Origin: Sedimentisphaerales bacterium
GTDB lineage: Bacteria; Planctomycetota; Phycisphaerae; Sedimentisphaerales; Anaerobacaceae
NCBI GenBank assembly: GCA_963708075.1
Contig: OY970194.1
Span: 1,920,001-1,984,000 of the forward strand
DNA length: 64,000 nucleotides
Direction: 5' to 3'
Shown: positions 2,485 to 19,700 of the stretch, in pieces
Layout of the letters: each line of letters begins with the position of its first letter
How positions within the stretch are numbered: the first letter of the stretch is position 1
The notes under the pieces: model-generated
What the model was told of the DNA's origin: nothing
Seen by the model: the letters and a program-made list of their open reading frames with translations, nothing else
Databases searched by the model: none
Program-made: the position numbers and the translations under genes

Positions 2485-2862
2485 ATGAGCAATCAGCAAT
2501 CCTGTGGGTGCAGTGGTGGACCGAAACTGATCTTTGCGTGCAGCGGTGCCGCGGATGTAGGGGAAATTGCCGACAGGGCCGCAAGGAAGTTGACCCGCGA
2601 CGGGGTGGGCCGTATGTTCTGTACAGTCGGACTTGGCGGGCGGATCAGCGGCATTCTCAAGACCACGGAAGCGGCTGATAGCGTTCTTGCCATTGACGGC
2701 TGTCCGCTGAACTGTGTCAAGTCCAGCCTGGAGCAGGCGGGGTTCACGGCCTTTAAGCATCTGCAACTGGCCGACCTGGGGCTGGAGAAATGCAAGAGCC
2801 CGGCGACGGACGAGAGCGTCAGCAAAGTGGCGGCACGGGCGGCAGAAATGATCGGCTCATAG
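2485..2862 (+). CDS. DGC-domain putative zinc-binding protein
   Basis: ACSGAADVG, MFC and AIDGCPLNC motifs. Confidence 0.85.
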   Translation: MSNQQSCGCSGGPKLIFACSGAADVGEIADRAARKLTRDGVGRMFCTVGLGGRISGILKTTEAADSVLAIDGCPLNCVKSSLEQAGFTAFKHLQLADLGLEKCKSPATDESVSKVAARAAEMIGS

Positions 2863-2874
2863 AAAGGGTCGCGC

Positions 2875-3369
2875 ATGACCATTCGATGCTTTCTCATGCT
2901 GGCAGCGTGCCTGTCCTGTCTGGGCTGTCGGGCAGTAGACCCCTCAAATCCCAAAGCTCCTGCCCCATCGTCAGCGGGAGATCCGCCAGTGACGCAGGCT
3001 CAGGTGCAATCTCCTGCCGGCCCTACCGTGGTGTACGCCTATTATTTCCACCGAACCTTTCGCTGCGTTTCGTGTCTTTCGATGGAGGAGATGGCCGCTC
3101 GCACGATTGAGGAGCACTTCGCTCGGCAGGTACGGAACGGGCAGGTGGTTTGGACAACCATAAACATCGAAGACCCGGCGACTGCGCCTCTCCGGCAGCA
3201 GCTCGATGTACGAAGCAACGGACTGGTGCTGGTCCGGATGGAAGACGGTGTATACAAGGGCTCGAAGCCACTGGATTCACTGTGGGGACTTCTGGACCGG
3301 CCGGAGGCTTTCTCAAAGTACGTGGTCGATGAGGTCAATGCGTTCCTGGTCGCGGGGAACAAGAGGTGA
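2875..3369 (+). CDS. exported thioredoxin-like protein, ArsF (nitroreductase subunit)-like family, probable lipoprotein
   Basis: signal with LGC lipobox-like site; VYAYYFHRTFRCVSC motif. Confidence 0.7.
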   Translation: MTIRCFLMLAACLSCLGCRAVDPSNPKAPAPSSAGDPPVTQAQVQSPAGPTVVYAYYFHRTFRCVSCLSMEEMAARTIEEHFARQVRNGQVVWTTINIEDPATAPLRQQLDVRSNGLVLVRMEDGVYKGSKPLDSLWGLLDRPEAFSKYVVDEVNAFLVAGNKR

Positions 3370-3496
3370 GACCATGATGCTTGCACAGTATTGCAGGTGT
3401 AGTCCGGCGAATATCGCGCTTCTGCTGACTACTGCGGTAGGAATGTGGTGCATCTTCGTGTGGGTCCCTTCGGTATTGAGATCAAAAGGAGATCGT

Positions 3497-4783
3497 ATGA
3501 CTAAGGCGTTGAAGATCGTGGTGGTCGCGGCTCTGATCCTATCCGTGGCAGCCATCGTGCAGATCAAGCAGCGGGGCAAGCAGACAGATGCCGTGCAGGG
3601 CCTAGCCACACCAGCCGTCGCCGCTGAACCAACGGCCTCGGGCCTGCCTCGCCTGGTGGACCTGGGTGCGGATAAATGTATCCCATGCAAGATGATGGCC
3701 CCAGTCCTCGAAGAACTGAGGGAGCAATACAAAGGCCGGCTGGACGTGGTCTTTCTGGATGTGTGGAAGAATCCCAACGTCAGCAAGCAGTACGGCATCC
3801 AGGTGATCCCGACACAGATCTTTTATGACGCCACGGGCAAAGAGCGGTTCCGGCATGAGGGTTTCTTCTCGAAGGACGACATCTTGGCCAAGTGGAGAGA
3901 GCTTGGTGTCGATCTATCGAGCGGCGCTGCGCAGACACCGGCGTTCGAGCAGCTCACACCTGCCAAGCCTGACGAACGCCCGAAGGAAAGCATCTGCTAC
4001 ATGTGTGACGGCGGCATGAATCCGAGGACTCTCGTGACCGTTCAGACGGATAAAGGTCCAGTCAGATTGTGCAGCCCCCACTGCTACTGGATCATGTATT
4101 CCTGCCTCACCGAGGACAAGACCGGTTTCGAGAAGAAAGTCACGGTCACTGACTGGGTCACAGGCAAGCCAATTCCGCTTTCCGAAGCCGCCTTTCTGTA
4201 CGGTGAGGACGAAGCGACAGGCAAGCCGTGGATCAAGGCTTTTGCCGGCCGGGATGCCGCCGTCGCGGAGCGAGCCGCCAGTGGCGGCAGTGTCCTGGCC
4301 CTTGCCGCACTCCAGGAGAAGGAATTGTCGCATCGCTGCGGGTTCTGTGAGCGTGCGTGCTATCCGCAAGATGCCTCTGAAGTGATCGTTGAAGGCGGGG
4401 TGCATACCTGGGGTTGCTGCTCCCACTGCGCCTTGGGCGTGGCCGCTCGGACCGGCAAGAATATCGAGGTACGTGAAAAGGACCGCCTGACAAAGCAGGC
4501 GATTGTGGTCAAGACGCTCGATGGCAAAGTCGCCTCGCTGGAACCGGCCACAGCGGTCGCATGGTTCGGCCAACGAAGAAAGCCCGACGGCGCCTGGGCA
4601 TCCGCCGGGTGCTTCCACCAGGGCTTCTTCACCGGCGTAGACAATCTCAAGAAGTGGGTCGAGCTGAACCCCTACGAGACGGGCCGGCTCATCAGTATCA
4701 GCCAGGCGCTGGCCGACAAGATGAAACTGTCGCCTGAGCAAATCCAGAAGGCATGCAAGATCGGCGAATGTGCACCAAAGTAA
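3497..4783 (+). CDS. membrane-anchored thioredoxin fused to a NosL-like and a MerB (organomercurial lyase)-like domain
   Basis: TM anchor; DLGADKCIPC thioredoxin; CYMC..CSPHC..VTDWVTGK NosL-like domain; WGCCSHCAL..LEPATAVAW..GCFHQGFF..WVELNP..GRLISISQA MerB-like domain; RBS AGGAG before ATG 3497, alternative in-frame ATG at 3374. Confidence 0.7.
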   Translation: MTKALKIVVVAALILSVAAIVQIKQRGKQTDAVQGLATPAVAAEPTASGLPRLVDLGADKCIPCKMMAPVLEELREQYKGRLDVVFLDVWKNPNVSKQYGIQVIPTQIFYDATGKERFRHEGFFSKDDILAKWRELGVDLSSGAAQTPAFEQLTPAKPDERPKESICYMCDGGMNPRTLVTVQTDKGPVRLCSPHCYWIMYSCLTEDKTGFEKKVTVTDWVTGKPIPLSEAAFLYGEDEATGKPWIKAFAGRDAAVAERAASGGSVLALAALQEKELSHRCGFCERACYPQDASEVIVEGGVHTWGCCSHCALGVAARTGKNIEVREKDRLTKQAIVVKTLDGKVASLEPATAVAWFGQRRKPDGAWASAGCFHQGFFTGVDNLKKWVELNPYETGRLISISQALADKMKLSPEQIQKACKIGECAPK

Positions 4784-4789
4784 CCGCAT

Positions 4790-5767
4790 ATGGATTCGTA
4801 TATGAAGGGTACAACCATGATGACAAGAAGCGTTCTTCCAACAATCATCGTGCTGTTCGGAATATCCACCCTTCCTGTTTGGGCGAATGAATCGCCGGCG
4901 GCGCCAGTCGATGTCCAGGAGAAGCCGTCCCTGGTCCGGGATGTCTATCCGGGTCTGGCGTCAAACAGTCTGACTTACGCGACGCTGTCCGACCTGCCCT
5001 CTGGGGTGCTCCTGAAGGCCGAGGGTGTCACTGTCACAGACAAAGATGTCACTGACCAGATCGCGAAAGTGCCGCAGGAGATGCAGGCCCAACTCAAGAA
5101 AAACGCCTTTTTCATGCTGGAGAACCTGGCGACACGTCAGCTCCTGATCGCTCTGGCCAAGGCGAAGATACCTGAGCCAAACGCTACGGCCTCTTCTGAC
5201 GAGAAGCAGATGATCCAGACGTACCTCAAGGGGCTGGTCGCCAACGTGCAGGCCAGTGACGCGGAAGTGACCAGGTTCTACGAGGAGAACAAGGACGCCT
5301 GCGGCGGCGCAACCCTGGACCAGGTGAAGGACCAGTTGAAACAGCTCGTCGTCCAGCAGAAACAACAGGACCTCGTGGATGAGCACGTCCGCACGCTGGG
5401 GCAGCGCATATCCATCGAGATTTCCGCATCCTGGACGAAGGAACAGGCGGTGCTGGCCAAAGACAATCCCGTGGACAAGGCCCGGTCCAGCGGCAAGCCC
5501 TCGCTGGTGGATTTCGGCTCCACCGGTTGCCGGCCGTGTGACATGCTTGCTCCAATCCTGGAGACGCTGCAGACGAAATACGCCGGCAAGGTGAACGTGC
5601 TATTCATTCACGTCGGCCAGGAGCAGATCCTGGCCGCCAGGTACGGCATCCAGACAATCCCGACGCAGTTCTTCTACGATAAGGACGGCAAGGAGACATT
5701 CCGTCACGTCGGGTTCTGGCCGCAGGCCGAGATTGAAAAGAAGCTGGCGGAAATGGGGGTCAAATAG
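4790..5767 (+). CDS. exported protein with SurA/PPIase-chaperone-like helical N-domain and C-terminal thioredoxin
   Basis: signal peptide ending VWA; VDFGSTGCRPC and YGIQTIPTQFFYDKDGKE..RHVGF; start may be ATG 4817. Confidence 0.75.
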   Translation: MDSYMKGTTMMTRSVLPTIIVLFGISTLPVWANESPAAPVDVQEKPSLVRDVYPGLASNSLTYATLSDLPSGVLLKAEGVTVTDKDVTDQIAKVPQEMQAQLKKNAFFMLENLATRQLLIALAKAKIPEPNATASSDEKQMIQTYLKGLVANVQASDAEVTRFYEENKDACGGATLDQVKDQLKQLVVQQKQQDLVDEHVRTLGQRISIEISASWTKEQAVLAKDNPVDKARSSGKPSLVDFGSTGCRPCDMLAPILETLQTKYAGKVNVLFIHVGQEQILAARYGIQTIPTQFFYDKDGKETFRHVGFWPQAEIEKKLAEMGVK

Positions 5768-5770
5768 GCC

Positions 5771-6469
5771 GTGGAAAAGCTGTTCACAACGTTGACGCAC
5801 GCCGTCGAGGGCACGCCGGCAATTGCCCTGACGGCTGCCTTCGTATGGGGCATTCTCAGCATTCTGCTGAGTCCGTGTCACCTGTCCAGCATCCCGCTGA
5901 TTGTCGGATTCATTGACAAACAGGGCCAGATGTCCACGAAGCGGACGTTCGCCATTTCCGCGCTCTTTGCGGGCGGGATCCTGATTACGATTGCGGCCGT
6001 GGGCGCTGTCACGGCCGCCGCCGGCCGGATGATGGGCGATGTCGGACGCTACGGCAATTACTTCGTTGCCGCTATCTTCTTTCTCGTGGGCCTGTACCTG
6101 CTGGACATCATCACTTTGCCCTGGTCAGGTCCGGGCCAGATCGGCATGAAGCGAAAGGGTATGCTGGCCGCGTTCGTCCTCGGCCTGGTCTTCGGTATTG
6201 CCATCGGCCCCTGCACATTCGCCTACATGGCCCCGATGCTCGCTGTCACGTTCCGCGTGGCCTCGACCGCCCTGGCCTACGGGATCGCCCTGCTCGTCGC
6301 CTACGGCGTTGGCCATTGCTCGGTCATTGTCGTCGCCGGCACCAGCACGGGATGGGTGCAACGCTATCTCAACTGGAATGAGAAATCCAAAGGGGCTGTC
6401 ATTCTCAAGAGAATCTGCGGCGTCCTGGTCCTGCTCGCCGGCCTGTATCTGATCTACATCGCGCCTTAA
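5771..6469 (+). CDS. ccdA: CcdA/DsbD-type transmembrane disulfide reductase
   Basis: ILSILLSPCHL and IGPCTF Pro-Cys motifs; about 6 TM helices. Confidence 0.85.
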   Translation: MEKLFTTLTHAVEGTPAIALTAAFVWGILSILLSPCHLSSIPLIVGFIDKQGQMSTKRTFAISALFAGGILITIAAVGAVTAAAGRMMGDVGRYGNYFVAAIFFLVGLYLLDIITLPWSGPGQIGMKRKGMLAAFVLGLVFGIAIGPCTFAYMAPMLAVTFRVASTALAYGIALLVAYGVGHCSVIVVAGTSTGWVQRYLNWNEKSKGAVILKRICGVLVLLAGLYLIYIAP

Positions 6470-6523
6470 AGGGCCTTTTGCGATAACCCAAGCAATCCAG
6501 ACATCAGCAAAGGACGTTCGAGA

Positions 6524-6819
6524 ATGAATCGAAGGGAATTCCTGACAACCACACTGGCAGCGGGCACAACGGGATCGTCGCCGTCGGTGCCGCCCGCAAC
6601 GGCGGCCAGGAGCTGGCGATTCGATCCGTACAGGCAGCGCTGCTGTGCCAGGAGATGATCATCGTCGGCGACGGTCAGCCCACGGCCCATTTCGGAGCCA
6701 CGCTGGTCAACGATGGCAAGGACAGTATCGCGGGCGACGAAGTCGGCGTTTCCACAGCCAAGAACCTCGGCCGGCACATTGCCGAAGTCGCTCTCAAGCC
6801 GGCGCGGACTGGCGGTTGA
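6524..6819 (+). pseudogene. internally deleted Tat-exported flavodoxin/iron-sulfur flavoprotein (Isf-like) remnant
   Basis: MNRREFLTTTLAAG at 6524 is joined out of frame at ~6571 to GIVAVGAARNGGQE..QEMIIVGDG..AHFGATL..TAKNLGRHIAE, the C-terminal half of this family; not in the ORF track. Confidence 0.65.
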
Positions 6820-6839: not shown

Positions 6840-6868
6840 TTGACATAGGACTCCTGCTTCAGTATAAT
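6840..6868 (+). promoter_or_regulatory. consensus sigma70 promoter of the arsR-arsC-hgcAB operon
   Basis: TTGACA (6840-6845), 17 bp, TATAAT (6863-6868). Confidence 0.9.
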
Positions 6869-6883
6869 TCGTCAAATGGCGAA
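6868..6883. promoter_or_regulatory. putative ArsR operator palindrome
   Basis: TTCGTCA-AA-TGGCGAA, a 7-bp inverted repeat with one mismatch, over the predicted transcription start. Confidence 0.7.
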
Positions 6884-6892
6884 ATATAAGGG

Positions 6893-7264
6893 ATGCCTAT
6901 GCGTGAAATTCTCGACGTAACCAAGGCTCTGGCGGATGGAAACCGGCTCCGCGTGCTGATGGCACTGGCGGGCGGCGAGTTGTGCGTCTGTCAGATCGTG
7001 GAGTTGCTGCACTTGGCCCCTTCGACAACATCCAAGCACATGTCTATCCTGCGACAGGCTCGGCTGGTGGAAAGCCGCAAGGACGGCCGCTGGATGTACT
7101 ACCGGCTGCCGGATCGTGATGCCCCGAAGGCGGTCAAAGGCGCCGTGGCATGGGTGCGGCGCCATCTCGCCGAATCGCCCCGGATCGTGCAGGACCGGAA
7201 AGAGCTTAAGAGAATTCTCAGCATGGACCCGGAGGAAATATGCAAGGGACAGTGCAAAAGATGA
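6893..7264 (+). CDS. arsR: ArsR arsenite-responsive repressor
   Basis: KALAD.NRLR, ELCVC As(III)-binding motif, SKHMSILRQARLVESRKDGRWMYY; C-terminal CKGQC. Confidence 0.93.
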   Translation: MPMREILDVTKALADGNRLRVLMALAGGELCVCQIVELLHLAPSTTSKHMSILRQARLVESRKDGRWMYYRLPDRDAPKAVKGAVAWVRRHLAESPRIVQDRKELKRILSMDPEEICKGQCKR

Positions 7265-7692
7265 AGGTGCTGTTCCTGTGCACGGGCAACTCCTGCCGGA
7301 GCCAGATGGCCGAGGGCTGGGCCCGGCAGCTCAAGGGCGACGTGATTGAGCCCTATTCGGCCGGCGTCGAGCCGCACGGCCTCGATCCCAAGGCCGTCCA
7401 GGTCATGGCTGAGGCCGGCGTGGACATTTCACGCCAGCATGCCAAGCACGTTGACGAGGTCATGGACGTTCCATTCGACTATGTCGTGACCGTCTGCGAT
7501 GACGCACACGAGCGATGCCCGTTTTTTCCGGGCAACGCCAGGATTGTGCATGTCAGTTTCGAAGACCCGCCCCAATTGGTCAAAGCGGCAAAAAGTGATG
7601 AAGAGGCCTTGAACGCCTATCGACGCGTCAGAGACGAGATCAAGGCGTTCGTAGAAACCCTGCCGGAGGGGTTGTCGGAGTCGAAGCACTGA
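7261..7692 (+). CDS. arsC: thioredoxin-coupled arsenate reductase (LMW-PTPase fold)
   Basis: CTGNSCRSQMAEG P-loop, VTVCDDAHERCP, EDP; ATGA overlap with arsR. Confidence 0.93.
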   Translation: MKVLFLCTGNSCRSQMAEGWARQLKGDVIEPYSAGVEPHGLDPKAVQVMAEAGVDISRQHAKHVDEVMDVPFDYVVTVCDDAHERCPFFPGNARIVHVSFEDPPQLVKAAKSDEEALNAYRRVRDEIKAFVETLPEGLSESKH

Positions 7693-7723
7693 GCTGAGTG
7701 GAAAACAAGCACGAGGATTAGAA

Positions 7724-8719
7724 GTGGAATCATCCATAGGCACCGTCAGTACAATTTGGACTTGGGCGGATCGGCTGGGAGCCGTAGCAGTTCGCTGCAA
7801 CATTGGCCGGATGCACTACAGCATTGCGCCGGGTCTGTATGCTGTGAACGAACCGGGGCCGGATGCTCCCGTGTTTGTTTCGGCAAACTACAAGCTCTCG
7901 TTTGGCCATCTCCGCCGTGCCCTCAACGGCATTTCCGGATGGATACTCGTGCTCGACACCAAGGGGATCAATGTCTGGTGCGCCGCTGGCAAGGGGACCT
8001 TTGGCACGGTCGAGCTGGTGCAGCGAATTGGGGCCGTGAACCTGGCCAAACGGGTCTCTCATCGAACTGTCATTGTCCCTCAGTTGGGTGCTCCTGGGGT
8101 GGCAGCGCACGAGGTGCACAGGCAGACCGGCTTTCGGGTGGTGTATGGTCCTGTTCGGGCTAAGGACATTCCGGGATTCCTGCGTGGTGGGATGAAAGCG
8201 GATGCCGACATGCGGAGGGTGCAGTTCCGGCTCGCTGACCGCCTCGCGGTCGCCCCCGTGGAATTGATCCTCTCAGCCAAGCATGCGTCGATCGTGGCGG
8301 CCGCTTTCGCAGTTTTGGCCGGGTGGCGCGGCGGCGGCTGGGCCTGGGAGACCTTCCAAACACAAGGAGCGGTCGCAGCCGCATCGGTCCTGGGAGGATA
8401 TATCTTCGCCGGAATCGCTGTTCCCGGCTTGCTGCCCTGGCTCCCCGGGCGGGCTTTCAGCATCAAAGGGGCGTTTGGGGGCCTGCTGGCGTGGCTATTG
8501 CTCTGGGCACTGGGACCGTACACGCAGGCTATTGATCTGGCGGCCTGGCTGATCCTGCTGTGTACGATGGCGTCTTTCATGGGATTGAATTTCACCGGTG
8601 CCTCGACCTATACGTCGCTATCCGGCGTCAAGAAAGAGACGCGTATCGCCATCCCGATAATGGTCGTCGGCCTGTTGGCCGCTCTGGGTCTGTGGATACG
8701 GGCGTGTGGCATCCTTTGA
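7724..8719 (+). CDS. hgcA: mercury methylation corrinoid protein HgcA
   Basis: diagnostic cap-helix motif GINVWCAAGKGTFG; ANYKLSF, PQLGAPGVAAH, GPVRAKDI; C-terminal TM helices ending LNFTGASTYTSLSGVKKE. Confidence 0.96.
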   Translation: MESSIGTVSTIWTWADRLGAVAVRCNIGRMHYSIAPGLYAVNEPGPDAPVFVSANYKLSFGHLRRALNGISGWILVLDTKGINVWCAAGKGTFGTVELVQRIGAVNLAKRVSHRTVIVPQLGAPGVAAHEVHRQTGFRVVYGPVRAKDIPGFLRGGMKADADMRRVQFRLADRLAVAPVELILSAKHASIVAAAFAVLAGWRGGGWAWETFQTQGAVAAASVLGGYIFAGIAVPGLLPWLPGRAFSIKGAFGGLLAWLLLWALGPYTQAIDLAAWLILLCTMASFMGLNFTGASTYTSLSGVKKETRIAIPIMVVGLLAALGLWIRACGIL

Positions 8720-8729
8720 GAGGTGGAAC

Positions 8730-9029
8730 ATGAGCATGTACTTGAAGAATGTGGTGACTCTTGGGCTTGACGCGGACAAATGCATCGGCTGCGGCATGTG
8801 CGCCCAGGTATGCCCGCACGCTGTCTTTGCCATCCATGAGGGCAAGGCCCGGATTGGAGATCGGGATGCCTGTATGGAGTGCGGGGCCTGCGCCAAGAAT
8901 TGCCCGGTCGGAGCCATCTCCGTCCAAGCCGGCGTTGGCTGCGCCCAGGCCGTTCTTCATAGCTGGACCAAAAGCAAGGATGGCTGTTGCTGCGAGGGTG
9001 CTTCCTGCTGTGGACGGTCCGAGTCATAA
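8730..9029 (+). CDS. hgcB: mercury methylation ferredoxin HgcB
   Basis: CIGCGMC..VCPH and CMECGACAKNCP, GVGCA, Cys-rich tail; directly after hgcA. Confidence 0.96.
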   Translation: MSMYLKNVVTLGLDADKCIGCGMCAQVCPHAVFAIHEGKARIGDRDACMECGACAKNCPVGAISVQAGVGCAQAVLHSWTKSKDGCCCEGASCCGRSES

Positions 9030-9087
9030 ACGAGTTAGTAAGGGAACAACACGCGTCGAAGGTGTGAAAGCGTGCCAGGAGCAGAAA

Positions 9088-9369
9088 ATGGATGATAAGA
9101 CCAGAGAATTGATCGCCATCGGAGCGTCCATCACAGCCCATTGCCAGCCCTGTCTGACCTATCACCTGGGTAAGGCTAGGGAGCTGGGGATAGACGAACA
9201 GGAGATCCGGGAGGCCGTCGCCGTTGGCCAGAAGGTTGAGAAAGGATCCATGTCCGCGATGCGGGATTTCACACAACAGTCCCTCGATTCGCTGGCGCAG
9301 GACCCTCAGAATAATTCCGCGCCTTGTACCGGCAAGACACAGCCGAATGGAAAGAGTTGTTGTTCGTGA
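9088..9369 (+). CDS. carboxymuconolactone decarboxylase/AhpD family protein
   Basis: KTRELIAIGASITAHCQPCLTYH..KARELG..EEIREA; ends SCCS. Confidence 0.85.
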   Translation: MDDKTRELIAIGASITAHCQPCLTYHLGKARELGIDEQEIREAVAVGQKVEKGSMSAMRDFTQQSLDSLAQDPQNNSAPCTGKTQPNGKSCCS

Positions 9370-9396
9370 AAACCAATATTGAGGAAGGAGTGACCA

Positions 9397-10086
9397 ATGA
9401 ATCTGCCGAACGAAGAACCGAAGCAGACTGGCAACATGGAACGACTGAGACAACAGGCCTCGGATTGTGCACCGGGCTGCGCCTGTCACGGCACTGGATC
9501 ATCGGGACGATTGCGGTGGGTCCTGGGAGTGATCGTGCTGCTCGTCGCCGGCACGCTGGTGGCACGGGCCGTGATCAGAAGCCAAGGATCGTCAACAGAG
9601 CCGGCCTCGCCTGCTTTTGCGCCCCTTGCCCAGGCGACGGCGTCCGAGAACCCGTCTCCTGCAACCCCGCCCGCCACTACCGAGGCGACGGAAGCAGGCA
9701 CGACCAGGAGCATCGCCTCGCTTTCCGAGTTGAACATGCTGGCGGTCGCGAACGATGCTGTCTTTGTATACATCCCTGGCAAAGGCGGGTCACCCAGTGA
9801 TCCCCCCACAGCGGCGATGAAGAGCGCGGCGAGCCGAATCACGTCTCAGGGATACAAGATCGCCCTGTTCACTCTGCAAGCAGGCTCGCGTGACCACGAA
9901 CAACTCGCGGCACAGATGTCCGTGCCGGGGGTTCTCGCGGCAGTCAAAGGACGCGGAATGAGCGCCGTCTCCGGCGAGATCACGGAAACCAAGCTCATCC
10001 AGGGTTTTGTCGGCGCCGCGAACGCGGGCGGCTGCGGACCGGCGGGCTGTGGTCCGGCGGGCTGTCCACCAACGGGAAGCAAGTAA
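9397..10086 (+). CDS. hypothetical single-TM protein with Cys-rich termini
   Basis: RBS GAAGGAG; DCAPGCAC before the TM helix; C-terminal GGCGPAGCGPAGCPP. Confidence 0.7.
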   Translation: MNLPNEEPKQTGNMERLRQQASDCAPGCACHGTGSSGRLRWVLGVIVLLVAGTLVARAVIRSQGSSTEPASPAFAPLAQATASENPSPATPPATTEATEAGTTRSIASLSELNMLAVANDAVFVYIPGKGGSPSDPPTAAMKSAASRITSQGYKIALFTLQAGSRDHEQLAAQMSVPGVLAAVKGRGMSAVSGEITETKLIQGFVGAANAGGCGPAGCGPAGCPPTGSK

Positions 10087-10087
10087 C

Positions 10088-10788
10088 ATGCTCAAGGCAA
10101 TTACGGACGCACTTCAAGCCGCCAGTATGGGGCCGGCAGCGTTGCCGCTGGCTTTTCTCCTGGGATTGGTCAGCGCGGTCGCCAGTGCCTGCTGCACTTT
10201 GCCGGCGATGGGCATGCTCGTAGCCTACTCGGGCACGCGGGAAAACACCAACCGGCGAATGGCATTCACGTCGGCGATCTGGTTCCTGATCGGAACCACA
10301 GTGGCGCTGATCGTACTGGGGCTTGTCGCCGGTTTCGTCGGCCAGACGGCACAGGCGTTTCTTGGACGATACTGGAAGATATTCGCGGGAGCCGTCGCAG
10401 TCCTTCTGGGGCTGGCGACTCTCAAGTTGCTTCCCATCCGTCTGCCGAAACGCATTCAGAAGAATGGTAACCCCTCCGCGTACGGCGCAAAATGGGCGCA
10501 GCGCTCGGAGGGTTGTTTCTTGGCGGCGGCGTGGCAGCGTGCTCGCTGCCCTGCAATCCGGGGATCTTCATTGTGCTCGGCGCCAGTGTGTTGCTGGGCC
10601 GGGTCATGTGGGGCATGGTGCTCATGGCGGCGTTTGCCGTCGGTTTCAGCCTGCCGCTCAGTGCCATTCTCTTCGGCGTCTCATTTGGCAAGGCATCCAT
10701 CAAGATGCAGAAGGTTGACGCGGTGATCCGAACTGTCGCCGGTGTCCTGCTGGCTGGCGCGGGCCTGTATTTGTTGGCGTCATTTTGA
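10088..10788 (+). CDS. second CcdA/DsbD-like membrane protein; frameshift at ~10490
   Basis: SAVASACCTLP in the first frame, ACSLPCNPG and further TM helices in the second frame (10492-10788). Confidence 0.7.
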
Positions 10789-10807
10789 CAAAAAAGGAAC
10801 ATGGAAG

Positions 10808-11137
10808 ATGACAAAACTGGTGGAAGTGTTCGATCCGCCCATGTGCTGCTCCAGTGGCGTGTGCGGCCCGAAGGTGGATAAGAGACTCGTACAGTTCAGC
10901 GCCGCACTGGAGTGGCTGCGCGGTCAGGGCGTTCAGGTGCAGCGATACAACCCGACCCAGCAATATGAAGCATTTGTCAATAACGCCACAGTCGTCAACA
11001 CGATCAACACACACGGCACGGAATGCCTTCCCCTGATCCTGGTGGATGGACAGATCGTCAGCTATGGCGGCTATCCCAGCAAAGAGGACCTCGCCGTGAT
11101 GGCCGGCGTTGAAAGTCAGAGGAAGGCGGAAGCGTGA
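10808..11137 (+). CDS. arsD: arsenite metallochaperone ArsD
   Basis: VFDPPMCCSSGVCGP, RYNP, LPLILVDG..GGYP. Confidence 0.93.
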   Translation: MTKLVEVFDPPMCCSSGVCGPKVDKRLVQFSAALEWLRGQGVQVQRYNPTQQYEAFVNNATVVNTINTHGTECLPLILVDGQIVSYGGYPSKEDLAVMAGVESQRKAEA

Positions 11138-12966
11138 CAAGACAGACCAACCATTTTGAGGCGTTTGTACGCGCTGCCCCCCGCTTTCTGTTCTTCACCG
11201 GCAAAGGCGGCGTCGGCAAGACCACTCTATCCTGTGCCACGGCCGTGGCCCTGGCGGACAGTGGACGCCGCGTGCTGCTGATCAGCACGGACCCCGCGTC
11301 GAACCTGAACGAAGTACTGGGTGCAGAACTGTCCTCAAAACCCGTTCGGTTGGAATCGGTGCATGGGCTGTGGGCCTTGAACATAGACCCCCAGACAGCG
11401 GCCCGCGAGTACCGCGAACGCATGGTCGCTCCCTATCGCGGCGTGCTGCCGCCTGCGGCGGTCGCCGGGATTGAAGAGCAATTGTCCGGCGCCTGCACGA
11501 CCGAGATCGCCGCGTTCAACGAGTTCTCTCGTTTCATTGGCCAGCCGCAGGCCACAGCGAACTATGACCACGTCGTATTCGACACGGCGCCAACCGGTCA
11601 TACCCTTCGTCTGCTCCAACTGCCGGCGGCATGGAACCAGTACCTCGACACCAACACGAGTGGGACCTCCTGCCTGGGACCGCTTTCGGGTCTTCGCGAG
11701 CAGCATGCCCTCTACGCCAGGGCGCTGCAATGCCTGTCCGATTCGGCGAAAACTCAGGTGGCATTAGTCAGTCGCCCCGAGCGTTCCGCGCTGGCCGAAG
11801 CGGAGCGTACGCGATCCGAGCTGGGCGCGCTGGGTCTGAGTAACATTCGGCTCTTACTGAATGGACTATTCGATAACAGTGACAGCGACCCAGTTGCCCT
11901 GGCTATGGCCTCACGCCAGCGACAAGCCCTATCCGGTATGCCAGAGGGCCTGCGGCCACTCGCGCGCACGGAGGTTCCCCTGCTGCCATTCAATGTGACT
12001 GGACTTTCCGCCGTCCGGGCTGTGACCGATCCCGCGTGTTCGGCCGTCGCAGAGGCAAGGGGAAAAGAAACCCGGTCTTTCGCCGGTTGGCCATCGCTAT
12101 CCGCACTGGTCCGTGAGATCGAGGCCGATGGTCACGGCGTCATCCTCGCGATGGGTAAAGGGGGCGTCGGCAAGACAACTATAGCATCGGCCATCGCGGT
12201 CGAACTGGCCTCTCGTGGTCATCGTGTGCATCTGACCACCACCGATCCCGCGGCCCACATCGAACATGCGCTTGGAGAATCCGTGGCGAATCTGGAGACC
12301 AGCAGGATCGATCCGAGAGTTGAGATCGCCGCCTACACCCAGGAAGTCATGGCGTCTACGAGCGCGGACCTCGATGAGGAGGGCCGCAGGCTGCTGGAGG
12401 AGGACCTGCGATCCCCCTGCACCGAGGAGATTGCGGTATTCAGGGCCTTTGCCGCCAAGGTGGACAAGGGCCGGGATGGTTTCGTCGTTCTGGATACCGC
12501 CCCGACCGGGCATACGCTTTTGCTTCTCGATGCCACGGAGGCTTACCACCGCGAGGTGTCACGCACGCAAAGTGATCTGCCCGAGGCGGTCCGGCATCTG
12601 CTGCCGCGTCTGCGAGATCCTGTCTTCAGCAAGGTGATCCTCGTGACCCTGCCGGAGGCGACGCCCGTTCATGAGGCTGCGCAACTGCAGGAAGATCTCC
12701 AGCGTGCAGGGATACGCCCCTTCGCCTGGATCATCAATCAGAGCCTCAGTCCACTTGCCCTGGCCCACCCCCTGCTCAAGGCCAGACGAGCCAATGAGCA
12801 GCGGTTCATTGAAGAGGTCCGGCAGCACACGGACCGCCTGGCGGTCGTGCCCTGGCTGTCCCGAGAGCCAACAGGGGTAGAGGGATTGCGGCGATTGACC
12901 AGTGACTTGCGTGAACTGGATCCTTCCAGACAGACAAGACAGGAGATGCCCCGTGCCAGGATATGA
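11134..12966 (+). CDS. arsA: arsenical pump-driving ATPase ArsA
   Basis: two GKGGVGKTT P-loops, two DTAPTGHT motifs, SGACTTE, SCLGP, SPCTEE. Confidence 0.96.
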   Translation: MTRQTNHFEAFVRAAPRFLFFTGKGGVGKTTLSCATAVALADSGRRVLLISTDPASNLNEVLGAELSSKPVRLESVHGLWALNIDPQTAAREYRERMVAPYRGVLPPAAVAGIEEQLSGACTTEIAAFNEFSRFIGQPQATANYDHVVFDTAPTGHTLRLLQLPAAWNQYLDTNTSGTSCLGPLSGLREQHALYARALQCLSDSAKTQVALVSRPERSALAEAERTRSELGALGLSNIRLLLNGLFDNSDSDPVALAMASRQRQALSGMPEGLRPLARTEVPLLPFNVTGLSAVRAVTDPACSAVAEARGKETRSFAGWPSLSALVREIEADGHGVILAMGKGGVGKTTIASAIAVELASRGHRVHLTTTDPAAHIEHALGESVANLETSRIDPRVEIAAYTQEVMASTSADLDEEGRRLLEEDLRSPCTEEIAVFRAFAAKVDKGRDGFVVLDTAPTGHTLLLLDATEAYHREVSRTQSDLPEAVRHLLPRLRDPVFSKVILVTLPEATPVHEAAQLQEDLQRAGIRPFAWIINQSLSPLALAHPLLKARRANEQRFIEEVRQHTDRLAVVPWLSREPTGVEGLRRLTSDLRELDPSRQTRQEMPRARI

Positions 12967-13165
12967 CTTCGAATGTCAGGCTTGCCACAAATCATTTGAG
13001 ATTCAGGTGACATTTGCCGAGTACTCGGCCCAGATGAGTGAACACAAGATCGCGTGCCCCACGTGCGGATCGAACAAGGTGGTGCGTGTGTTCAGCCCGC
13101 CGAGCATCCGCTCCAGTTCCTCTCCCCGGTCCGGCGGTTGTTGCCCGGGCGGCAGTTGCGGATGA
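12953..13165 (+). CDS. FmdB-family zinc-ribbon protein
   Basis: MPGYDFECQACHKSFE...CPTCGS, tail GGCCPGGSCG; GTG start. Confidence 0.8.
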   Translation: MPGYDFECQACHKSFEIQVTFAEYSAQMSEHKIACPTCGSNKVVRVFSPPSIRSSSSPRSGGCCPGGSCG

Positions 13166-13334
13166 ATGAGCCGTCATGTGCACAGGGGACTCCTGGCGGA
13201 GCCAAAAACCGGGCATGGTGCTGCAAGAGCGATTGCAGGGAAAACTTATCCGCCGTATTGGGCGTATGTAAGATGACTACAGGTGTTTCCTTCCTCTGGA
13301 CGTTCCGCGAAGTTTTTGTGACGGGAGTTTGTGT

Positions 13335-14468
13335 ATGAGCGATGGAATCGCAAAGAGACTTTCATTTCTGGACCGCTTTCTGACGTTGTGGATTTTCCTG
13401 GCGATGGCCATTGGAGTGGCGCTGGGGTATTTTGCGCCGGGCGTTGGCAACTGGATCGGCTCGCTGCGGCCGGAAGGGACGCAGACCAGTATCCCCATCG
13501 CCATTGGGCTGATCCTGATGATGTATCCGCCTTTGGCCAAGGTCAAGTACGAGGAATTGGGCGACGTCTTTCGTAACTGGCGTGTGCTGGGCTTGAGTCT
13601 GGTGCAGAACTGGATCGTCGGCCCGATACTGATGTTTGCCCTGGCCGTGCTGTTCCTGCGCGGCCGGCCGGAGTTCATGATCGGCCTGATCATGATCGGC
13701 CTGGCCCGCTGTATCGCCATGGTCATCGTCTGGAACGATCTGGCCAAGGGAGACACAGAATACGCGGCCGGTCTGGTTGCCTTCAACTCCATCTTCCAGG
13801 TGCTCTTCTACAGCATTTATGCCTGGGTATTCATCACGGTGTTACCGCCGATGCTCGGTCTGTCGGGAGCGGTGGTTAGTATCACCGTCGGCCAGATCGC
13901 CCAGAGCGTCTTCATCTATCTGGGCATCCCGTTCCTCGCCGGAATGATCACTCGCTTCGTACTGGTCAAGGCCAAGGGCAAAGAGTGGTATCACGGCCGC
14001 TTCATTCCCAAGATCAGTCCGATCACGCTCATCGCGCTACTGTTCACCATTGTGGTCATGTTCTCCATGCAGGGCCAGAAGATCATCGACAAGCCGGGGG
14101 ATGTGGTGCTGATCGCCATTCCTCTGCTGATCTACTTCGTGGTCATGTTCCTGGCAAGCTTCTGGATGAGCAAGAAGGCCGGGGCCAACTACGCCAAATC
14201 GGCCACGCTGTCCTTCACCGCCGCCAGCAACAATTTCGAGTTGGCCATCGCGGTCGCGGTGGGCGTGTTCGGTATCAACCATGGTGCGGCGTTTGCCGCC
14301 GTCATCGGTCCGCTGGTCGAAGTGCCTGCACTTATCGGACTGGTGAATGTGAGCCTGTGGCTCAAGGGCAAATGGTTCGCAACCGACCCGGCCGAGTTGG
14401 AGAAGGTCGGCGGCTGCACCACCGGCCGGCCCGCGACGGTAACATCTGCTGAGATTCCTGAATCATAG
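13335..14468 (+). CDS. acr3: Acr3 arsenite efflux transporter
   Basis: [48 protein letters not shown]. Confidence 0.96.
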
Positions 14469-14505
14469 GTGCTTCTGGGCGCCTTTTAGCAAGGGGGGTA
14501 TAGTC

Positions 14506-15378
14506 ATGTTTGAGACCATCGTGGTAGCCACCGACTTGTCGGAAGCATCCGACATGGTGATCACCTGCCTGCGCGGGCTGCATGATCTTGGGACACGGAA
14601 GGTGGTGCTTGCCCATGCCCTTGGGGTTAGGTACGAGGAGGAGATCGCACGCTTGCTCTCCCAGATGGCCGAGCCCAAACTGACCAACCAACGGGCGGCT
14701 CTTGAGGCGCAAGGGTTTCAGGTCGCCGTAGAGGTGGGTCCTGGCACGGCAATGGTAGAGGTCAATCGGATTGCTGAGAAGCACCGGGCCTCCCTTATCG
14801 TGGTGGGGTCCCTGGGAGCGACCTGTACCCGTGAAGCTCTATTGGGCGGGACCGCTCTGGCGATCCTTCATCGGGCTCAGATCCCTGTCCTGGTCGTGCG
14901 GGTACGAGTGGCCGAGCCGGGTGCGAGCGAAAAATGCCGAGTGATCTGCGAAGACTTCACCAAGCATGTCCTTTTCCCGACGGACTTCTCTGACAATGCC
15001 GAGAAAGCCTTCGAGCAGGTCAGGCAACTGGCGGCGAATGGCGTGCGTCGGGTGACCCTCCTGCATGTCCAGGATAAGATCAAGATTGATCCGCATCTCA
15101 AGGAGCGGCTGGGAGAGTTCAACCGGATCGATCAGGAGCGTCTCGAGCGTCTGAAGGACGAATTGACGCGGCAAGGTGCGACAGATGTGGACATAAAGAT
15201 CCCCTACGAATCGCCCACTCAGGAGATACTGAGATTGGCTTCCCAGGACAAGGATACGCTGATTGTGATGGGAGGCCAGGGGCGAGGCTTCATCCGGGAA
15301 GTGTTTCTGGGAAGCGTCAGTCACAATGTCGCTCGTTACGCTACGGCACCTGTCCTGATCGTCCCGCCCATAAGATGA
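14506..15378 (+). CDS. tandem-domain universal stress protein
   Basis: two USP domains (VATDLS..LIVVGS..LLGG..PVLVV; FPTDFS..IVMGGQGRG..FLGSVS..PVLIV). Confidence 0.9.
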   Translation: MFETIVVATDLSEASDMVITCLRGLHDLGTRKVVLAHALGVRYEEEIARLLSQMAEPKLTNQRAALEAQGFQVAVEVGPGTAMVEVNRIAEKHRASLIVVGSLGATCTREALLGGTALAILHRAQIPVLVVRVRVAEPGASEKCRVICEDFTKHVLFPTDFSDNAEKAFEQVRQLAANGVRRVTLLHVQDKIKIDPHLKERLGEFNRIDQERLERLKDELTRQGATDVDIKIPYESPTQEILRLASQDKDTLIVMGGQGRGFIREVFLGSVSHNVARYATAPVLIVPPIR

Positions 15379-15474
15379 AGCCACCTCGCTGGATATGATC
15401 GCACATTTGCGGCTGTGACCGGTCTGCTCGTGCCTGCGCGAGGTCAATAGGAGTTGGTTGTGCACGGCGAAATC

Positions 15475-15483
15475 TGCTATAAT
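15475..15483 (+). promoter_or_regulatory. extended -10 element upstream of the WXG100 operon
   Basis: TGCTATAAT about 100 bp upstream of ATG 15583. Confidence 0.45.
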
Positions 15484-15582
15484 GGGAATGTATGGCAAGA
15501 GTGAACAGCAGATCATGCCGGTTCGCGGCTCGTGTTCCAACCCACGATTGGATACAGGTGGTTTCTCGATGCGGAGGTGATT

Positions 15583-15855
15583 ATGGCCAAAGCAAATGTT
15601 GACCCCGCGGAGTTACGGCGTTTTGCCCGGGATCTGACTCGCTTCAACTCCGACTTGGAAACCTTGCTGGTGGGCCTGCAGGGCCGCCTGAAGGAACTGG
15701 AGAGAAGCTGGGCGGACCAGGAACAGAGACGGTTTGCCCAGGAGTTTGAACTGACCGTGAAGACCCTGCGCCGCTTTCTCGACGCGTCCACCCAGCATGT
15801 GACATTTCTGGCGAAGAAAGCTGGTCACATCGAAGACTATCTACAGCAGCGGTAG
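15583..15855 (+). CDS. WXG100/ESAT-6-like protein (W-x-D variant)
   Basis: 90 aa helix-turn-helix; VDPAELRRFA N-terminus, central SWADQE; RBS GGAGGTG. Confidence 0.8.
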   Translation: MAKANVDPAELRRFARDLTRFNSDLETLLVGLQGRLKELERSWADQEQRRFAQEFELTVKTLRRFLDASTQHVTFLAKKAGHIEDYLQQR

Positions 15856-15864
15856 GAATCGAAG

Positions 15865-16527
15865 ATGGGCCAGGAGGCAAGAGTAAGTTCCATCTCCGTG
15901 CTCAAGCAGCTCAGGGCGTCGTTGGGCACCTTCGCGAAGATTGCCTCCATAGCTATGGAGGAGGCGAGCGCGGGGATTCAGCACACGCGTCAATGGGTGC
16001 GGGAGGACCAGAACCGTTTTTGGAAAGCGCAGGTCCAGGCACGCACGGAGCAATTTACGCGTGCGAAGCGTGCCTTGAAGCAGCGTCAGGTGTTCGACAG
16101 GACTCTGGCGGGCACTCCCAGCTCGTGCGTGGACGAAAAGAAAGCCTTACAGGTGGCGGAGGCCCGGCTGCGGGAAGCCGAGTACAAGCTCAGTCGGGTC
16201 AAGGCCTGGAGCCAGCAGATCGAGAAGGAATGGTCGGACTACCGGGCGGCAACACAGAGACTTGTCAATGGGGTCGAGGTGGAGATTCCGAATGCCCGAG
16301 CCCGGCTGGACAAAATGATCGATTCGCTCGAGGCATACTTCGCTCTGCCGCCCCTGGAAATGCCCAGGAGCGGCACGGAGCAACCCGAGGTCGATCTCGT
16401 GCAACCCGGGGAGGCGCCGGCGCCAGTCCCGCCCGAGCACCCCGCCCCTGCGCCGCCGAGCGCCGCAGAGACGGTCGAGGCGCCGCCCGAGACAACGCCG
16501 ACGTCACACGGTAATTCTATACCCTGA
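15865..16527 (+). CDS. coiled-coil protein with Pro-rich tail, in the WXG100 operon
   Basis: all-helical heptad pattern; 9-bp gap after the WXG100 gene. Confidence 0.7.
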   Translation: MGQEARVSSISVLKQLRASLGTFAKIASIAMEEASAGIQHTRQWVREDQNRFWKAQVQARTEQFTRAKRALKQRQVFDRTLAGTPSSCVDEKKALQVAEARLREAEYKLSRVKAWSQQIEKEWSDYRAATQRLVNGVEVEIPNARARLDKMIDSLEAYFALPPLEMPRSGTEQPEVDLVQPGEAPAPVPPEHPAPAPPSAAETVEAPPETTPTSHGNSIP

Positions 16528-16541
16528 CAAAGGGAGGTTAC

Positions 16542-16769
16542 GTGAGTACCATCGAAAGCCGTGCCAAGTTTATCCAGGCTGCCAAGAAGCTGATGGCGGA
16601 CTGGCAGCAGGCCCAGGAAGAGTGGCGGGATGACAACTGCCGACAGTTCGACAAGAAGTATATGGCGCCGCTGGAGTCGAGTATCCGCTCGGCAGCCTTG
16701 GCCATGGAACGCATGGAGACAATACTCGAGAGTGCACAACAGGATTGTGCCGACAGCACGGGACCTTAA
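16542..16769 (+). CDS. second small WXG100-like protein
   Basis: 75 aa helical hairpin with central EWRDD; RBS GGGAGG before GTG. Confidence 0.65.
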   Translation: MSTIESRAKFIQAAKKLMADWQQAQEEWRDDNCRQFDKKYMAPLESSIRSAALAMERMETILESAQQDCADSTGP

Positions 16770-16772
16770 TCC

Positions 16773-19700
16773 ATGAATACTCATTTGCAGGCCTATCTTC
16801 CGGGCCCGGAGCCGTTGCAGAACAACGACCACACAAGTCTCCAGCGTCAGGCGATGGGCGAAGTGCTTCGACTTTCGCCTGCCGTCTTGCGGCCCCTGGA
16901 ATCCCAGATCGCATCCGACTATCAAGTGGCCGTGCAGCGGGCGCAGGAACGGCTCGCCGCGGACAAGAGCAAGATAGAAGCCGCGCTGCAGGCCGGGAGC
17001 CAGGAGATTCAACGCCAGTATGATGCCCGGCGCGAGGCGACCCGAGCTGACTACGAGGCACGGCTCAGCACCATCAAGGTGGACGCCCAACACGCGCACA
17101 ACCGGGTCAACCAGAAAGCGACGGAGCTGAAGAGCAAGGCGGAGAAGGAATACCAGGATCAGGTGATGGTCGTGGAATATGTGGCCGAGGGGGCGACCAC
17201 CAAGGTCCAGCAGGGACGCATGACGGCGCAAGCGGTGGTTCAAGCCGCCCGCCAATATCTCGACGCCCTTGGCATGCAGGCGGATGAACTCCTGCGGCTC
17301 TACCGGCAGTCCGTCCCTCCCCTTGGCGAGAGAGCCCAACCCGATACGGACGTGGGCCCGTCTCCCGCTGAGGTTTACCGCTCCCAGCAGGCCTTGGCCG
17401 AGCTACATCTGAAGACACTCAGGCGGCTATTTGCCGCTCAGCTTTTCGTCGGCATTTACCCGCTGTTGTTCATCGGTGGAGTTCTCGGCATCGCTGTGAT
17501 GTTGCTGACGCTCCTGTACCTTCTGAAAGTCCCCGGCCTGCCCCCCCTTCTGGTGACAGGTCCGGTCACGGTTGGTTTGGTGATCGTTCTGGTCGGCTTG
17601 GGTGGGCGTGCCCTGTGGCGGCTGGCGAAGCGTCAGGTCCGGCGGGAGTTCACGGCATTCCAGGAAGCATTGACAGTGGCGCGCCGCGCTCTCGACCAAC
17701 AGCAGGAACTGACATTGCAGGACATCGAAGGGCAGTCGCGGACCTCCCTGGAGCAAACGGAGGCGGAGTCGCGGAAGGCCCGCGAGGCCCTCGAAGCGAC
17801 CAAGATACGGATTGCGAAGCAGCGCAGCACATCCCTGCAGGAGGTCGATCAGCGCGGGCGGGAAGCCTTGGATCGTCTTAAGCAACAAAGAGACAAGGCC
17901 TTGAACGAAGCGGAACGCGACTACCGGGAGCACCGGTTGGCGCTGGAGCAGCGACACCGCCAGGAATTGGCGCAGGTGCAGGCAAGATATGACCAGGACA
18001 TGGCTGCATGTGAGCACGAGCATCGGACTTCCCGCCAGAGGTTGGAGGAGCGATTGGACAAAGGCCTCACCTGCGTTCGGGCCATGCTCCAGGATACGGC
18101 CGATCTCAGCACGAGGGGTGTCGCAGGCTGGGACCACTTGCTGGTTGAATCCTGGACACCCCCCCAGACTCCCCCGTCTGCGGTCCGGTTTGGAGCATTT
18201 GCATTGGACTTACGGTCGTTGACGGACGTCGTACGGGCTCGGCTCGGGCCGGGCCTGGAGCCGACCGGACCCGTGGTTCTTCCGGCCCTGCTGGAATTCC
18301 CCCGGCAGTGTTCCATGCTACTTCAGTCCCCGCGTGAAGGGCGAGAGCTGGCGCTCGAGACTCTGCGAGCAGTGATGATGCGGCTCTTCACATCTCTCCC
18401 ACCGGGCCGGGTCCGCTTCACGATTCTCGACCCCATAGGCCTGGGCGAGAGCTTTGCCGGTTTCATGCACGCGGGGGACTACCAGGAGGCCCTGGTCGGC
18501 GGCCGCATCTGGACGGAGGCCCCCCAGATCCAGCAGCAACTGGAAGACCTCACGCAGCACATGGAGACCGTGATCCAGAAATACCTCCGCAACGAGTTCG
18601 AAACCATTGAGCAGTACAACGAGCAGGCGGGCGAGCTGGCGGAGCCGTATCGCTTCCTGGTGATCGCCGACTTCCCCACGAATTTCAATGAAGAAGCAGC
18701 CCGGCGTCTGAGCAGCATCGTTCACAGCGGTCCGCGGTGCGGCGTCCATACGCTCATCGCATACGACACGCGTCACGAGCTGCCGGCCGGCATCGATATA
18801 CAGGACGTGAGCGCCAACAGCATTCACCTCCTGTATGAAAAGGGCTGCTATGTCTGGCAAGACCCGATCCTGCGGCAATTCCCGCTCACCCTGGACCAGC
18901 CCCCGGACGAGACCACGTTGACGAAAATCATGCACGTGATCGGCAAGGCCGGCGCCCGGGCGGCCCGGGTCGAGGTTCCCTTCGAGGCGGTCGCTCCGGC
19001 CCAACACCAGACTTGGTCGCTCGATAGCCGGGCGGAGATTTGCGTTCCGCTGGGCCGCACGGGCGCGACGCGCCTGCAATATCTGCGTCTGGGTCGTGGG
19101 GTGGCCCAGCACATGTTGATCGCCGGCAAGACCGGCTCCGGCAAGTCCACTCTCCTCCACGTCATGGTTACCAACCTCGCCCTGTGGTATGCGCCCGACC
19201 AGGTGGAGCTCTACCTGGTCGATTTCAAACAGGGAGTGGAATTCAAAACCTACGTCACCCATCATCTCCCCCACGCCCGCGCGATCGCCATCGAGAGTGA
19301 CCGCGAATTCGGGCTGAGCATTCTGCGGCGCCTGGATGCCGAAATGGCCCATCGGGGCGAGCTGTTCCGCAGCTCCGGCGTGCAGGATATCAACGCCTAT
19401 CGTCAATCCACGGGAAAGACCATGCCGCGCACCGTACTCATCGTGGACGAGTTCCAGGTTTTCTTCGCGGAAGACGACAAGCTGGCCCAGGACGCAGCCG
19501 TGCTCCTGGAACAGCTCGTTCGCCAGGGACGAGCTTTTGGCATCCACGTGGTCCTGGGATCGCAGACGCTGGGCGGCGTGTTCGGCCTGGCTCGCAGCAC
19601 AATCGGACAAATGGCCATACGCGTCGCGTTGCAGTGCTCGGAGGCGGATTCCCAACTCATTCTCGACGACGAGAACGTCGCCGCCCGGCTGCTGTCAAGG

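Follow-up and report, generated by a model that had tools for sequence, protein, structure and literature searches.

Genes and features of the locus

The stretch of DNA analysed here (hereafter, the window) comprises 64,000 nt of the genome of a Sedimentisphaerales bacterium (GenBank assembly GCA_963708075.1, contig OY970194.1, positions 1,920,001 to 1,984,000 of the forward strand). It carries an arsenic (ars) operon in which the mercury-methylation genes hgcA and hgcB follow arsC, preceded by a promoter and a predicted operator for the repressor ArsR. All genes lie on the plus strand in the order arsR-arsC-hgcA-hgcB-ahpD-like (CMD)-anchored thioredoxin-fold (hyp)-ccdA-arsD-arsA-Zn ribbon-acr3-usp. 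The features are as follows (window coordinates; hidden Markov model (HMM) scores in bits):

6840..6868, plus strand, sigma70-type promoter: -35 box TTGACA (6840-6845), 17 nt, -10 box TATAAT (6863-6868); 12/12 match
6866..6885, no strand assigned, predicted ArsR operator: imperfect palindrome TTCG-N8-CGAA (6868-6883) overlapping the -10 box and the predicted start site; 26.5 bits
6893..7264, plus strand, arsR, ArsR/SmtB repressor: NF033788, 93 bits (cut-off 55); ELCVC box (C31, C33)
7261..7692, plus strand, arsC, thioredoxin-type arsenate reductase: TIGR02691, 148.6 bits, below the cut-off of 174.3
7724..8719, plus strand, hgcA, corrinoid protein: NF040863, 398.6 bits (cut-off 275)
8730..9029, plus strand, hgcB, 2[4Fe-4S] ferredoxin: NF040864, 125.1 bits (cut-off 99)
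9088..9369, plus strand, AhpD/CMD-domain protein (ahpD-like): CxxC and C-terminal CC; in congeners, ArsM carries this domain as a fusion
9397..10086, plus strand, membrane-anchored thioredoxin-fold protein (hyp): one transmembrane (TM) segment, no Cys in the fold, Cys-rich tails
10088..10788, plus strand, CcdA/DsbD-TM-like membrane protein: PF02683; two frames in the assembly, intact in congeners and relatives
10808..11137, plus strand, arsD, As(III) chaperone: NF033727, 122 bits (cut-off 90); CCxxxxC
11134..12966, plus strand, arsA, pump-driving ATPase: TIGR04291, 784 bits (cut-off 650)
12953..13165, plus strand, FmdB-type zinc-ribbon protein: TIGR02605, above cut-off
13162..13338, plus strand, 58-codon open reading frame (ORF) overlapping the ribbon gene and acr3 by 4 nt each: no Pfam hit; low GC content at third codon positions (0.54)
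13335..14468, plus strand, acr3, arsenite efflux permease: TIGR00832, 451.8 bits (cut-off 282.8)
14506..15378, plus strand, tandem universal stress protein (usp): PF00582

Adjacent genes are separated by -4 nt (arsR/arsC), 31 nt (arsC/hgcA), 10 nt (hgcA/hgcB), 58 nt (hgcB/CMD), 27 nt (CMD/hyp), 1 nt (hyp/ccdA), 19 nt (ccdA/arsD), -4 nt (arsD/arsA), -14 nt (arsA/ribbon) and 37 nt (acr3/usp). The widest gap is therefore 58 nt if the 58-codon ORF is counted and 169 nt (ribbon to acr3) otherwise; this ORF, for which no homolog was found among the loci tested, may not be a real gene. A preliminary description of this DNA had given the same order on one strand, with mostly tiny gaps that included the 31 and 10 bp around hgcA, and all of this was reproduced. 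Every gene that it listed is present, except that the ccdA-like gene occupies two reading frames and the ribbon-acr3 gap holds the ORF, which it did not list.

The operon had also been called complete, and its core genes are indeed there: ArsR, ArsC, ArsD, ArsA and Acr3 with their catalytic motifs are encoded on one strand behind a single promoter. ArsD, ArsA and Acr3 score above their cut-offs, while ArsC is recognized by its CTGNSCRS loop and downstream Cys pair despite the lower HMM score. ArsA possesses three metal-site Cys motifs and two DTAPTGH motifs.

The identification of HgcA and HgcB, originally based on the NVWCAAGK and CMECGAC motifs, is borne out by the curated NCBIfam cut-offs, which both proteins pass. 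In HgcA, motif and hydropathy analysis placed the cap helix NVWCAAGK at residue 83 and revealed five hydrophobic segments. HgcB, encoded directly after hgcA, contains two CxxCxxCxxxCP motifs, CMECGAC, the C73-equivalent cysteine (C71) and C-terminal Cys clusters. The best named matches of HgcA (65%) and ArsR (61%) are to a Phycisphaerae record, consistent with a Planctomycete.

Misassembly of the block, which the preliminary description had allowed for, is ruled out by contigs of two studies, X1 and X3. The arsC-hgcA junction is bridged in both (X1, 7536-7900; X3, 7570-7796), as is hgcA-hgcB-CMD; X1 may be the source sample, and the bridging is piecewise, the junctions being covered separately and the whole block not falling within any single record. 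The same core order is found in the congener G013 (arsR-arsC-arsC-hgcA-hgcB-hyp-ccdA-acr3). The split of the ccdA-like gene is probably an assembly error, because one low-depth contig from run X1 has one additional A in the A-run at ~10488.

Some 8 kb upstream of the operon, a tRNA-Asp gene is accompanied by an AlpA-like gene and by a weak integrase remnant whose Pfam match (E 0.0036) stays below the cut-off. The operon as a recent foreign island was considered but not adopted: no downstream repeat of the tRNA 3' end was found, the GC content is 0.600 versus 0.604 for the genome, and the congeners show the operon to be a resident of the genus.

Promoter, operator and the ArsR repressor

The 12/12 sigma70 match is the only one between positions 5000 and 17000, and in all 19 genus loci compared TTGAC is followed in register by a -10-like box. 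To evaluate the overlapping palindrome, a position weight matrix was derived from ten arsR loci in other genera of the family that have no hgcA in the fetched stretches, to which the hgcA screen of these genomes was confined; one mis-picked site (L098) was kept. Across the 7.5-Mb genome the operator at 6866-6885 ranks second, after a site of 30.2 bits and ahead of a third of 17.3 bits. The top-ranking site precedes the second, partly deleted ars cluster of the genome, which contains arsM. Ahead of arsR, the operator scores 22.9-30.7 bits in 19/19 genus loci. Thus, the perfect promoter with overlapping palindrome noted earlier is confirmed, and the palindrome corresponds to a conserved operator.

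Another important question is whether hgcAB might be separated from arsR and arsC by a promoter or terminator of its own, as the preliminary description had envisaged. Within the operon no operator site exceeded 9.1 bits, and six inter-gene stretches, when folded, gave no hairpin better than z -1.3 and none that was convincing; such consensus scans bear on sigma70-type signals. Because the spacing is tight and convincing hairpins are lacking, we infer that the genes are co-transcribed, which supports a single ArsR-controlled transcript that includes hgcAB.

The cysteines of ArsR are found only at positions 31, 33, 117 and 121. The third Cys of helix 3 is absent, and C117, which is conserved in an alignment of full-length homologs, is a possible third ligand; no As-bound relative was identified among the PDB matches. 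In the ArsR of plasmid R773, two cysteines suffice (10.1101/2022.10.17.512643). The ArsR of the window is not of the ArsR2 type of Pseudodesulfovibrio mercurii ND132, since its Cys positions differ from the four-Cys site located in the coil that follows helix 2 and in the strand that precedes helix 4. At the family level, 8/10 loci that harbor this ArsR and have no hgcA in the fetched stretch contain arsC or acr3. Judged from this context, As(III) is the likeliest inducer. The earlier claim that hgcAB is directly arsenite-inducible is thus supported as regards a single ArsR-controlled unit, while As(III) as the ligand is likely rather than certain.

Repressors resembling the description of ND132 ArsR2 were also observed upstream of hgcA in ten loci (L018, L020, L048, L056, L058, L071, L074, L113, L115 and L116). 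They carry a Cys-rich insertion, mostly without the ELCVC box, and are preceded by a nearly identical operator (17-30 bits), which suggests that ArsR2-like and canonical ars repressors may share one DNA-recognition class. The ~5.5 kb around hgcAB in L113 (G119:C72) contain the operator-like palindrome ten times, in scattered positions.

Exchange of arsM and hgcAB after arsC

The position following arsC was compared in 19 loci of the genus, namely, 17 arsR loci from 16 congeners, G013 and the window (a short match in G012 was left out), and an additional arsC or CMD gene in between was tolerated. This slot is occupied by arsM in 15 loci (one a remnant) and by hgcAB in two; one locus passes straight to acr3, and one reaches the contig end. 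All 18 informative loci therefore continue from arsR to arsM, hgcAB or acr3, and arsM and hgcAB never occur in the slot together (0/18). An ArsR ortholog is present in 19/24 genomes of the genus and hgcA in 2/24.

Two congeners allow an almost exact comparison. The operon of G015 (arsR-arsC-arsM::AhpD-hyp-ccdA-arsD-arsA-acr3) can be aligned with 6863-7669 (77%) and 9326-12892 (81%) of the window, leaving only hgcA-hgcB-CMD unmatched in between. For G003 the matching segments are 6863-7696 and 9110-9370, which leaves hgcA-hgcB and the methyltransferase domain of ArsM as the exchanged parts. The CMD domain fused to ArsM in G003 is 69% identical to the free CMD of the window, versus 31-38% for the other congener fusions. 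In a tree of arsR-arsC DNA, this genome (G000) and G013 are not sisters; the tree gives two changes, although the two may share a single origin, and the swap may have run in either direction.

The genome under study retains an arsM gene above cut-off (G000:146.9-147.7 kb) behind the top operator site. It lies in a second version of the ars island that has diverged and lost parts (G000:C1:146600-151200, minus strand; L096), in which an intact-looking ArsM-AhpD fusion follows the best operator, and the ArsR of the window could control this second copy in trans. No arsM was found in the G013 assembly, which is 74% complete.

The exchange of arsM and hgcAB in the slot after arsC of otherwise matching operons is new here. 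The slot pattern hints that HgcAB may stand in for an arsenic methyltransferase, a reading that is weighed below.

Linkage of hgcAB and ars genes in other lineages

These data raise the question of whether the layout is confined to the genus. We surveyed the best 80 hgcA loci from GTDB genomes, all counts referring to the fetched DNA. At least one of arsC, acr3, arsD and arsA is present in 30 loci, ArsR in 38 and arsA in three, and core ars genes stand on both sides in nine. No core ars gene occurs in 50/80 loci, or in 23/36 of the loci whose fetched DNA extends 5 kb or more to each side. A Phycisphaerae record (L013) has the order arsR-arsC::arsD-arsA-CMD-hgcA-hgcB-acr3. In 13/80 loci (e.g., L022, L024, L051, L069 and L089), hgcA is immediately preceded by a CcdA/DsbD-TM-like gene, and such a gene is present in the fetched DNA of 19/80.

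In the sample of the window's class, hgcA exceeds the cut-off in 8/401 genomes. In a Kiritimatiellales-centred sample of the class of G487, hgcA occurs in 26/201 genomes, and 20 hgcA loci from 19 of these include core ars genes in 15 cases, ArsR in 12 and an operator of at least 17 bits in nine; L155 and L158 combine arsD-arsA-arsC-acr3 with hgcAB. In a quick HgcA tree, the window groups with G013 (support 95) and L013 (98) inside a weakly supported group of nine (88), eight of which are ars-linked. Across HgcA clades and phyla, this tree gives 18 changes in ars linkage, at least six of them forced by starred branches, with many gene orders. Since core ars genes recur at the hgcA loci of L013, the class of G487 and the nine-member group, the layout is a recurring module and not a one-off.

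The survey of synteny and the phylogeny called for by the preliminary description thus confirm a real arrangement, and the novelty that it implied is reduced: hgcAB adjoining arsR, arsC and acr3, with arsA, arsD or arsM added on some contigs, has already been published, for Kiritimatiellae among others (PMC7438021, PMC10349881, PMC11984097, 10.1101/2022.10.17.512643). That arsM and hgcAB may share a locus was also noted by McDaniel 2020 (PMC7438021). Table S4 of 10.1101/2022.10.17.512643 covers ArsR-hgcAB genomes and may list such loci; the accessible text of 10.1101/2020.04.01.018762 contains nothing on ars. In the accessible passages of the four studies of ars-flanked hgcAB, figures and most supplements aside, there is neither an operator footprint nor an exchange of arsM and hgcAB in a slot, and the wider literature searched, from which subscription papers are largely absent, yielded no paper on either.

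Accessory and neighboring genes

In the predicted structure of the anchored protein (9397-10086), model residues ~100-210 match thioredoxins (Z 10.0, root-mean-square deviation 2.9, 102 aligned). The AhpD-like thiol protein and the pair formed by this protein and the CcdA-like one are probably thiol or electron relays, as far as function can be read from their domains. L084 encodes a fusion of ArsD with the anchored thioredoxin-fold protein, and L013 one of ArsC with ArsD (L013:505-1344). A usp gene beside acr3 was not seen in the congener loci compared.

Upstream of the operon, an ars-type cluster (window 1-6469, plus strand, and G000:C1:1918620-1920000) comprises two ArsR-like genes, ArsP, small thioredoxins, DGC, ArsF-like and CcdA genes; it lacks the operator of 6866-6885, and the tRNA-Asp gene, integrase remnant and AlpA-like gene precede it. 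Within it, 3 kb from hgcAB, a predicted exported protein (3497-4783, plus strand) combines a thioredoxin domain with a C-terminal MerB-like domain (PF03243, 58 bits, cut-off 27; PDB MerB2 5c17, E 3.6e-7). Additional cysteines surround the first catalytic Cys of this protein, and its conservation among congeners, whether or not they have hgcAB, is 67-92%. At 6494-6819 (plus strand) lies what remains, after an internal deletion, of a Tat-signal flavodoxin-like gene, which is intact directly 5' of arsR in most congeners. Downstream of the operon (15470-20765, plus strand), WXG100 and FtsK/EccC-like genes form a type VII secretion-like cluster, with an extended -10-like box that can be read at ~15475-15483.

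Interpretation

The explanation that we favor, and hold to be probable though well short of certain, is that this is the resident ars operon of the genus with a slot after arsC, and that HgcAB is a mercury methylase belonging to the exchangeable accessory cassettes of ars operons in Planctomycetes-Verrucomicrobia-Chlamydiae (PVC) bacteria. ArsR would bind the palindrome over the -10 box and repress one long transcript. As(III), produced by ArsC or taken from the medium, would bind C31 and C33, probably with C117, and cause release, whereupon arsC, hgcAB, arsD-arsA and acr3 would rise together and As(III) would be exported by ArsD-ArsA-Acr3. HgcAB would be produced alongside and would probably confer some benefit under arsenic or thiol stress, without chemical replacement of ArsM being implied. 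That HgcAB is a genuine S-adenosylmethionine (SAM)/cobalamin mercury methylase is judged jointly with this explanation and with the same qualified confidence.

Several observations weigh against this explanation. In HgcA, a G occupies the position where 70/72 motif-matching homologs have D (NYKLSF-D), and the N-terminal CC/CU extension was not found, the upstream frame closing after 23 codons; HgcA activity is therefore not guaranteed. The extension is also missing in L013 and many other HgcA proteins, so it was not treated as defining; it has been described for most HgcA but is not universal (10.1101/2022.07.06.499078). A selenocysteine extension of HgcA was likewise sought, and none was found. 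As regards transcription, the consensus scans can miss non-sigma70 internal promoters. As regards the ligand, ELCVC alone does not define it, because Geobacter ArsR2 has ELCVCDL and is a proposed Cd sensor (PMC9488089). Moreover, this ArsR is followed in 2/10 family loci by a heavy-metal P1B ATPase gene without adjoining arsC or acr3; one of these two cases is confirmed by NCBIfam and one is cut by a contig end, and one further locus among the ten has both kinds of genes.

An alternative is that the slot after arsC is a recombination-prone cassette site, at which hgcAB resides without any arsenic benefit and is merely co-expressed. The slot content does vary within the genus (second arsC, CMD, arsM, hgcAB or nothing), hgcA is as sparse as the genus and class counts show, and the majority of the best 80 hgcA loci have no core ars gene. 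Against this stand the recurrence of ars linkage across many HgcA clades and phyla in many gene orders and the higher As(V) sensitivity of an hgcAB deletion in ND132 (10.1101/2022.10.17.512643), and we consider a passive association unlikely.

A second alternative is functional displacement, in which HgcAB would be a non-orthologous stand-in for ArsM that methylates As(III) or thio-arsenicals in a cobalamin-dependent reaction, with SAM and the same AhpD-like partner, mercury methylation being a side reaction. It would account for the finding that arsM or hgcAB, never both, follows arsC in 17/18 informative genus loci, for the match of the G015 and G003 operons to that of the window, the G003 operon differing only by hgcA-hgcB versus the ArsM methyltransferase domain, and for the failure to find arsM in G013. 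HgcAB also uses SAM, like ArsM (PMC11588087). In the sample of the window's class, arsM was found in 1/7 hgcA genomes versus 229/393 others, the one tally that includes the unpublished G314 (Fisher p 0.045, kin not being independent). However, the genome under study keeps its own arsM, and when it is counted the figure becomes 2/8 (p 0.076). In the class of G487, arsM is present in 4/26 hgcA genomes versus 54/175 others (p 0.16), or in 3/26 versus 33/175 above cut-off (p 0.58), and L033, L046, L152, L149 (partial) and G525 each have arsM and hgcAB at one locus. Genome-wide exclusion of arsM by hgcA is thus not supported. In addition, ND132, which has hgcAB and no ArsM, made no mono- or dimethylarsenic, although one unidentified arsenic species was made (10.1101/2022.10.17.512643). 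Displacement therefore appears quite unlikely. Halomethanes as native HgcAB substrates have been proposed as a competing idea (10.64898/2026.04.26.720869).

Finally, ArsR might respond to Cd, Pb, Zn or Hg besides or instead of As(III), placing hgcAB in a general thiol-metal stress regulon. In L120, L121, L124, L015, L082 and L128, P1B ATPase genes are found behind or together with an ArsR of this type, and the box is shared with the proposed CadC mentioned above. CadC-type sensing requires an N-terminal Cys, which the ArsR of the window lacks; ars genes dominate the operons of this ArsR, and Hg did not induce ND132 hgcA, though through a different ArsR type (10.1101/2022.10.17.512643), so that such sensing is highly improbable.

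If the resident-operon explanation with its exchangeable hgcAB cassette holds, arsenic should increase the capacity for mercury methylation. The amount of methylmercury actually formed may not follow, because expression and rate are decoupled in ND132, in which As(III) and As(V) induce hgcAB but the raised hgcA expression mostly occurred without more methylmercury (10.1101/2022.10.17.512643). The earlier proposal that arsenic exposure switches on methylmercury production is thus not upheld.

Why microbes keep hgcAB is a long-standing question, and the control of its expression bears on the prediction of methylmercury in sediments. To this the locus contributes a natural series of matched operons, alike in regulator, operator and flanking genes and different in carrying arsM or hgcAB, which makes both the action of HgcAB on arsenic and arsenic-driven hgcAB expression in PVC bacteria directly testable. 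The defined operator can also be scanned for in metagenomes.

Comparison with known systems

The published metagenomic loci in which ars genes flank hgcAB have the same neighbors as the window and, in the accessible text, are reported as co-location only. The arsR2-hgcAB arrangement of ND132 resembles the window in having an ArsR-family repressor upstream of hgcAB, but ND132 ArsR2 uses a different four-Cys site with no ars genes beside it, whereas the ArsR of the window has the helix-3 ELCVC box and heads a full ars operon. With arsRDABC of plasmid R773 and with arsRCDA-acr3 operons, the window shares ArsR autorepression, ArsC, ArsD, ArsA and an efflux pump. It differs in having Acr3 instead of ArsB and, in addition, hgcAB and the AhpD-like, anchored thioredoxin-fold, CcdA-like, zinc-ribbon and Usp proteins; its ArsR is without the third helix-3 Cys (C37 of R773) and has the conserved C-terminal one. 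ArsM and the ArsM-AhpD fusion (NF008823) share with hgcAB of the window the slot, the AhpD-like partner and the SAM methyl donor. In fold and chemistry, however, they are unrelated: HgcAB is a membrane corrinoid/Fe-S system, for which arsenic methylation is only hypothesized.

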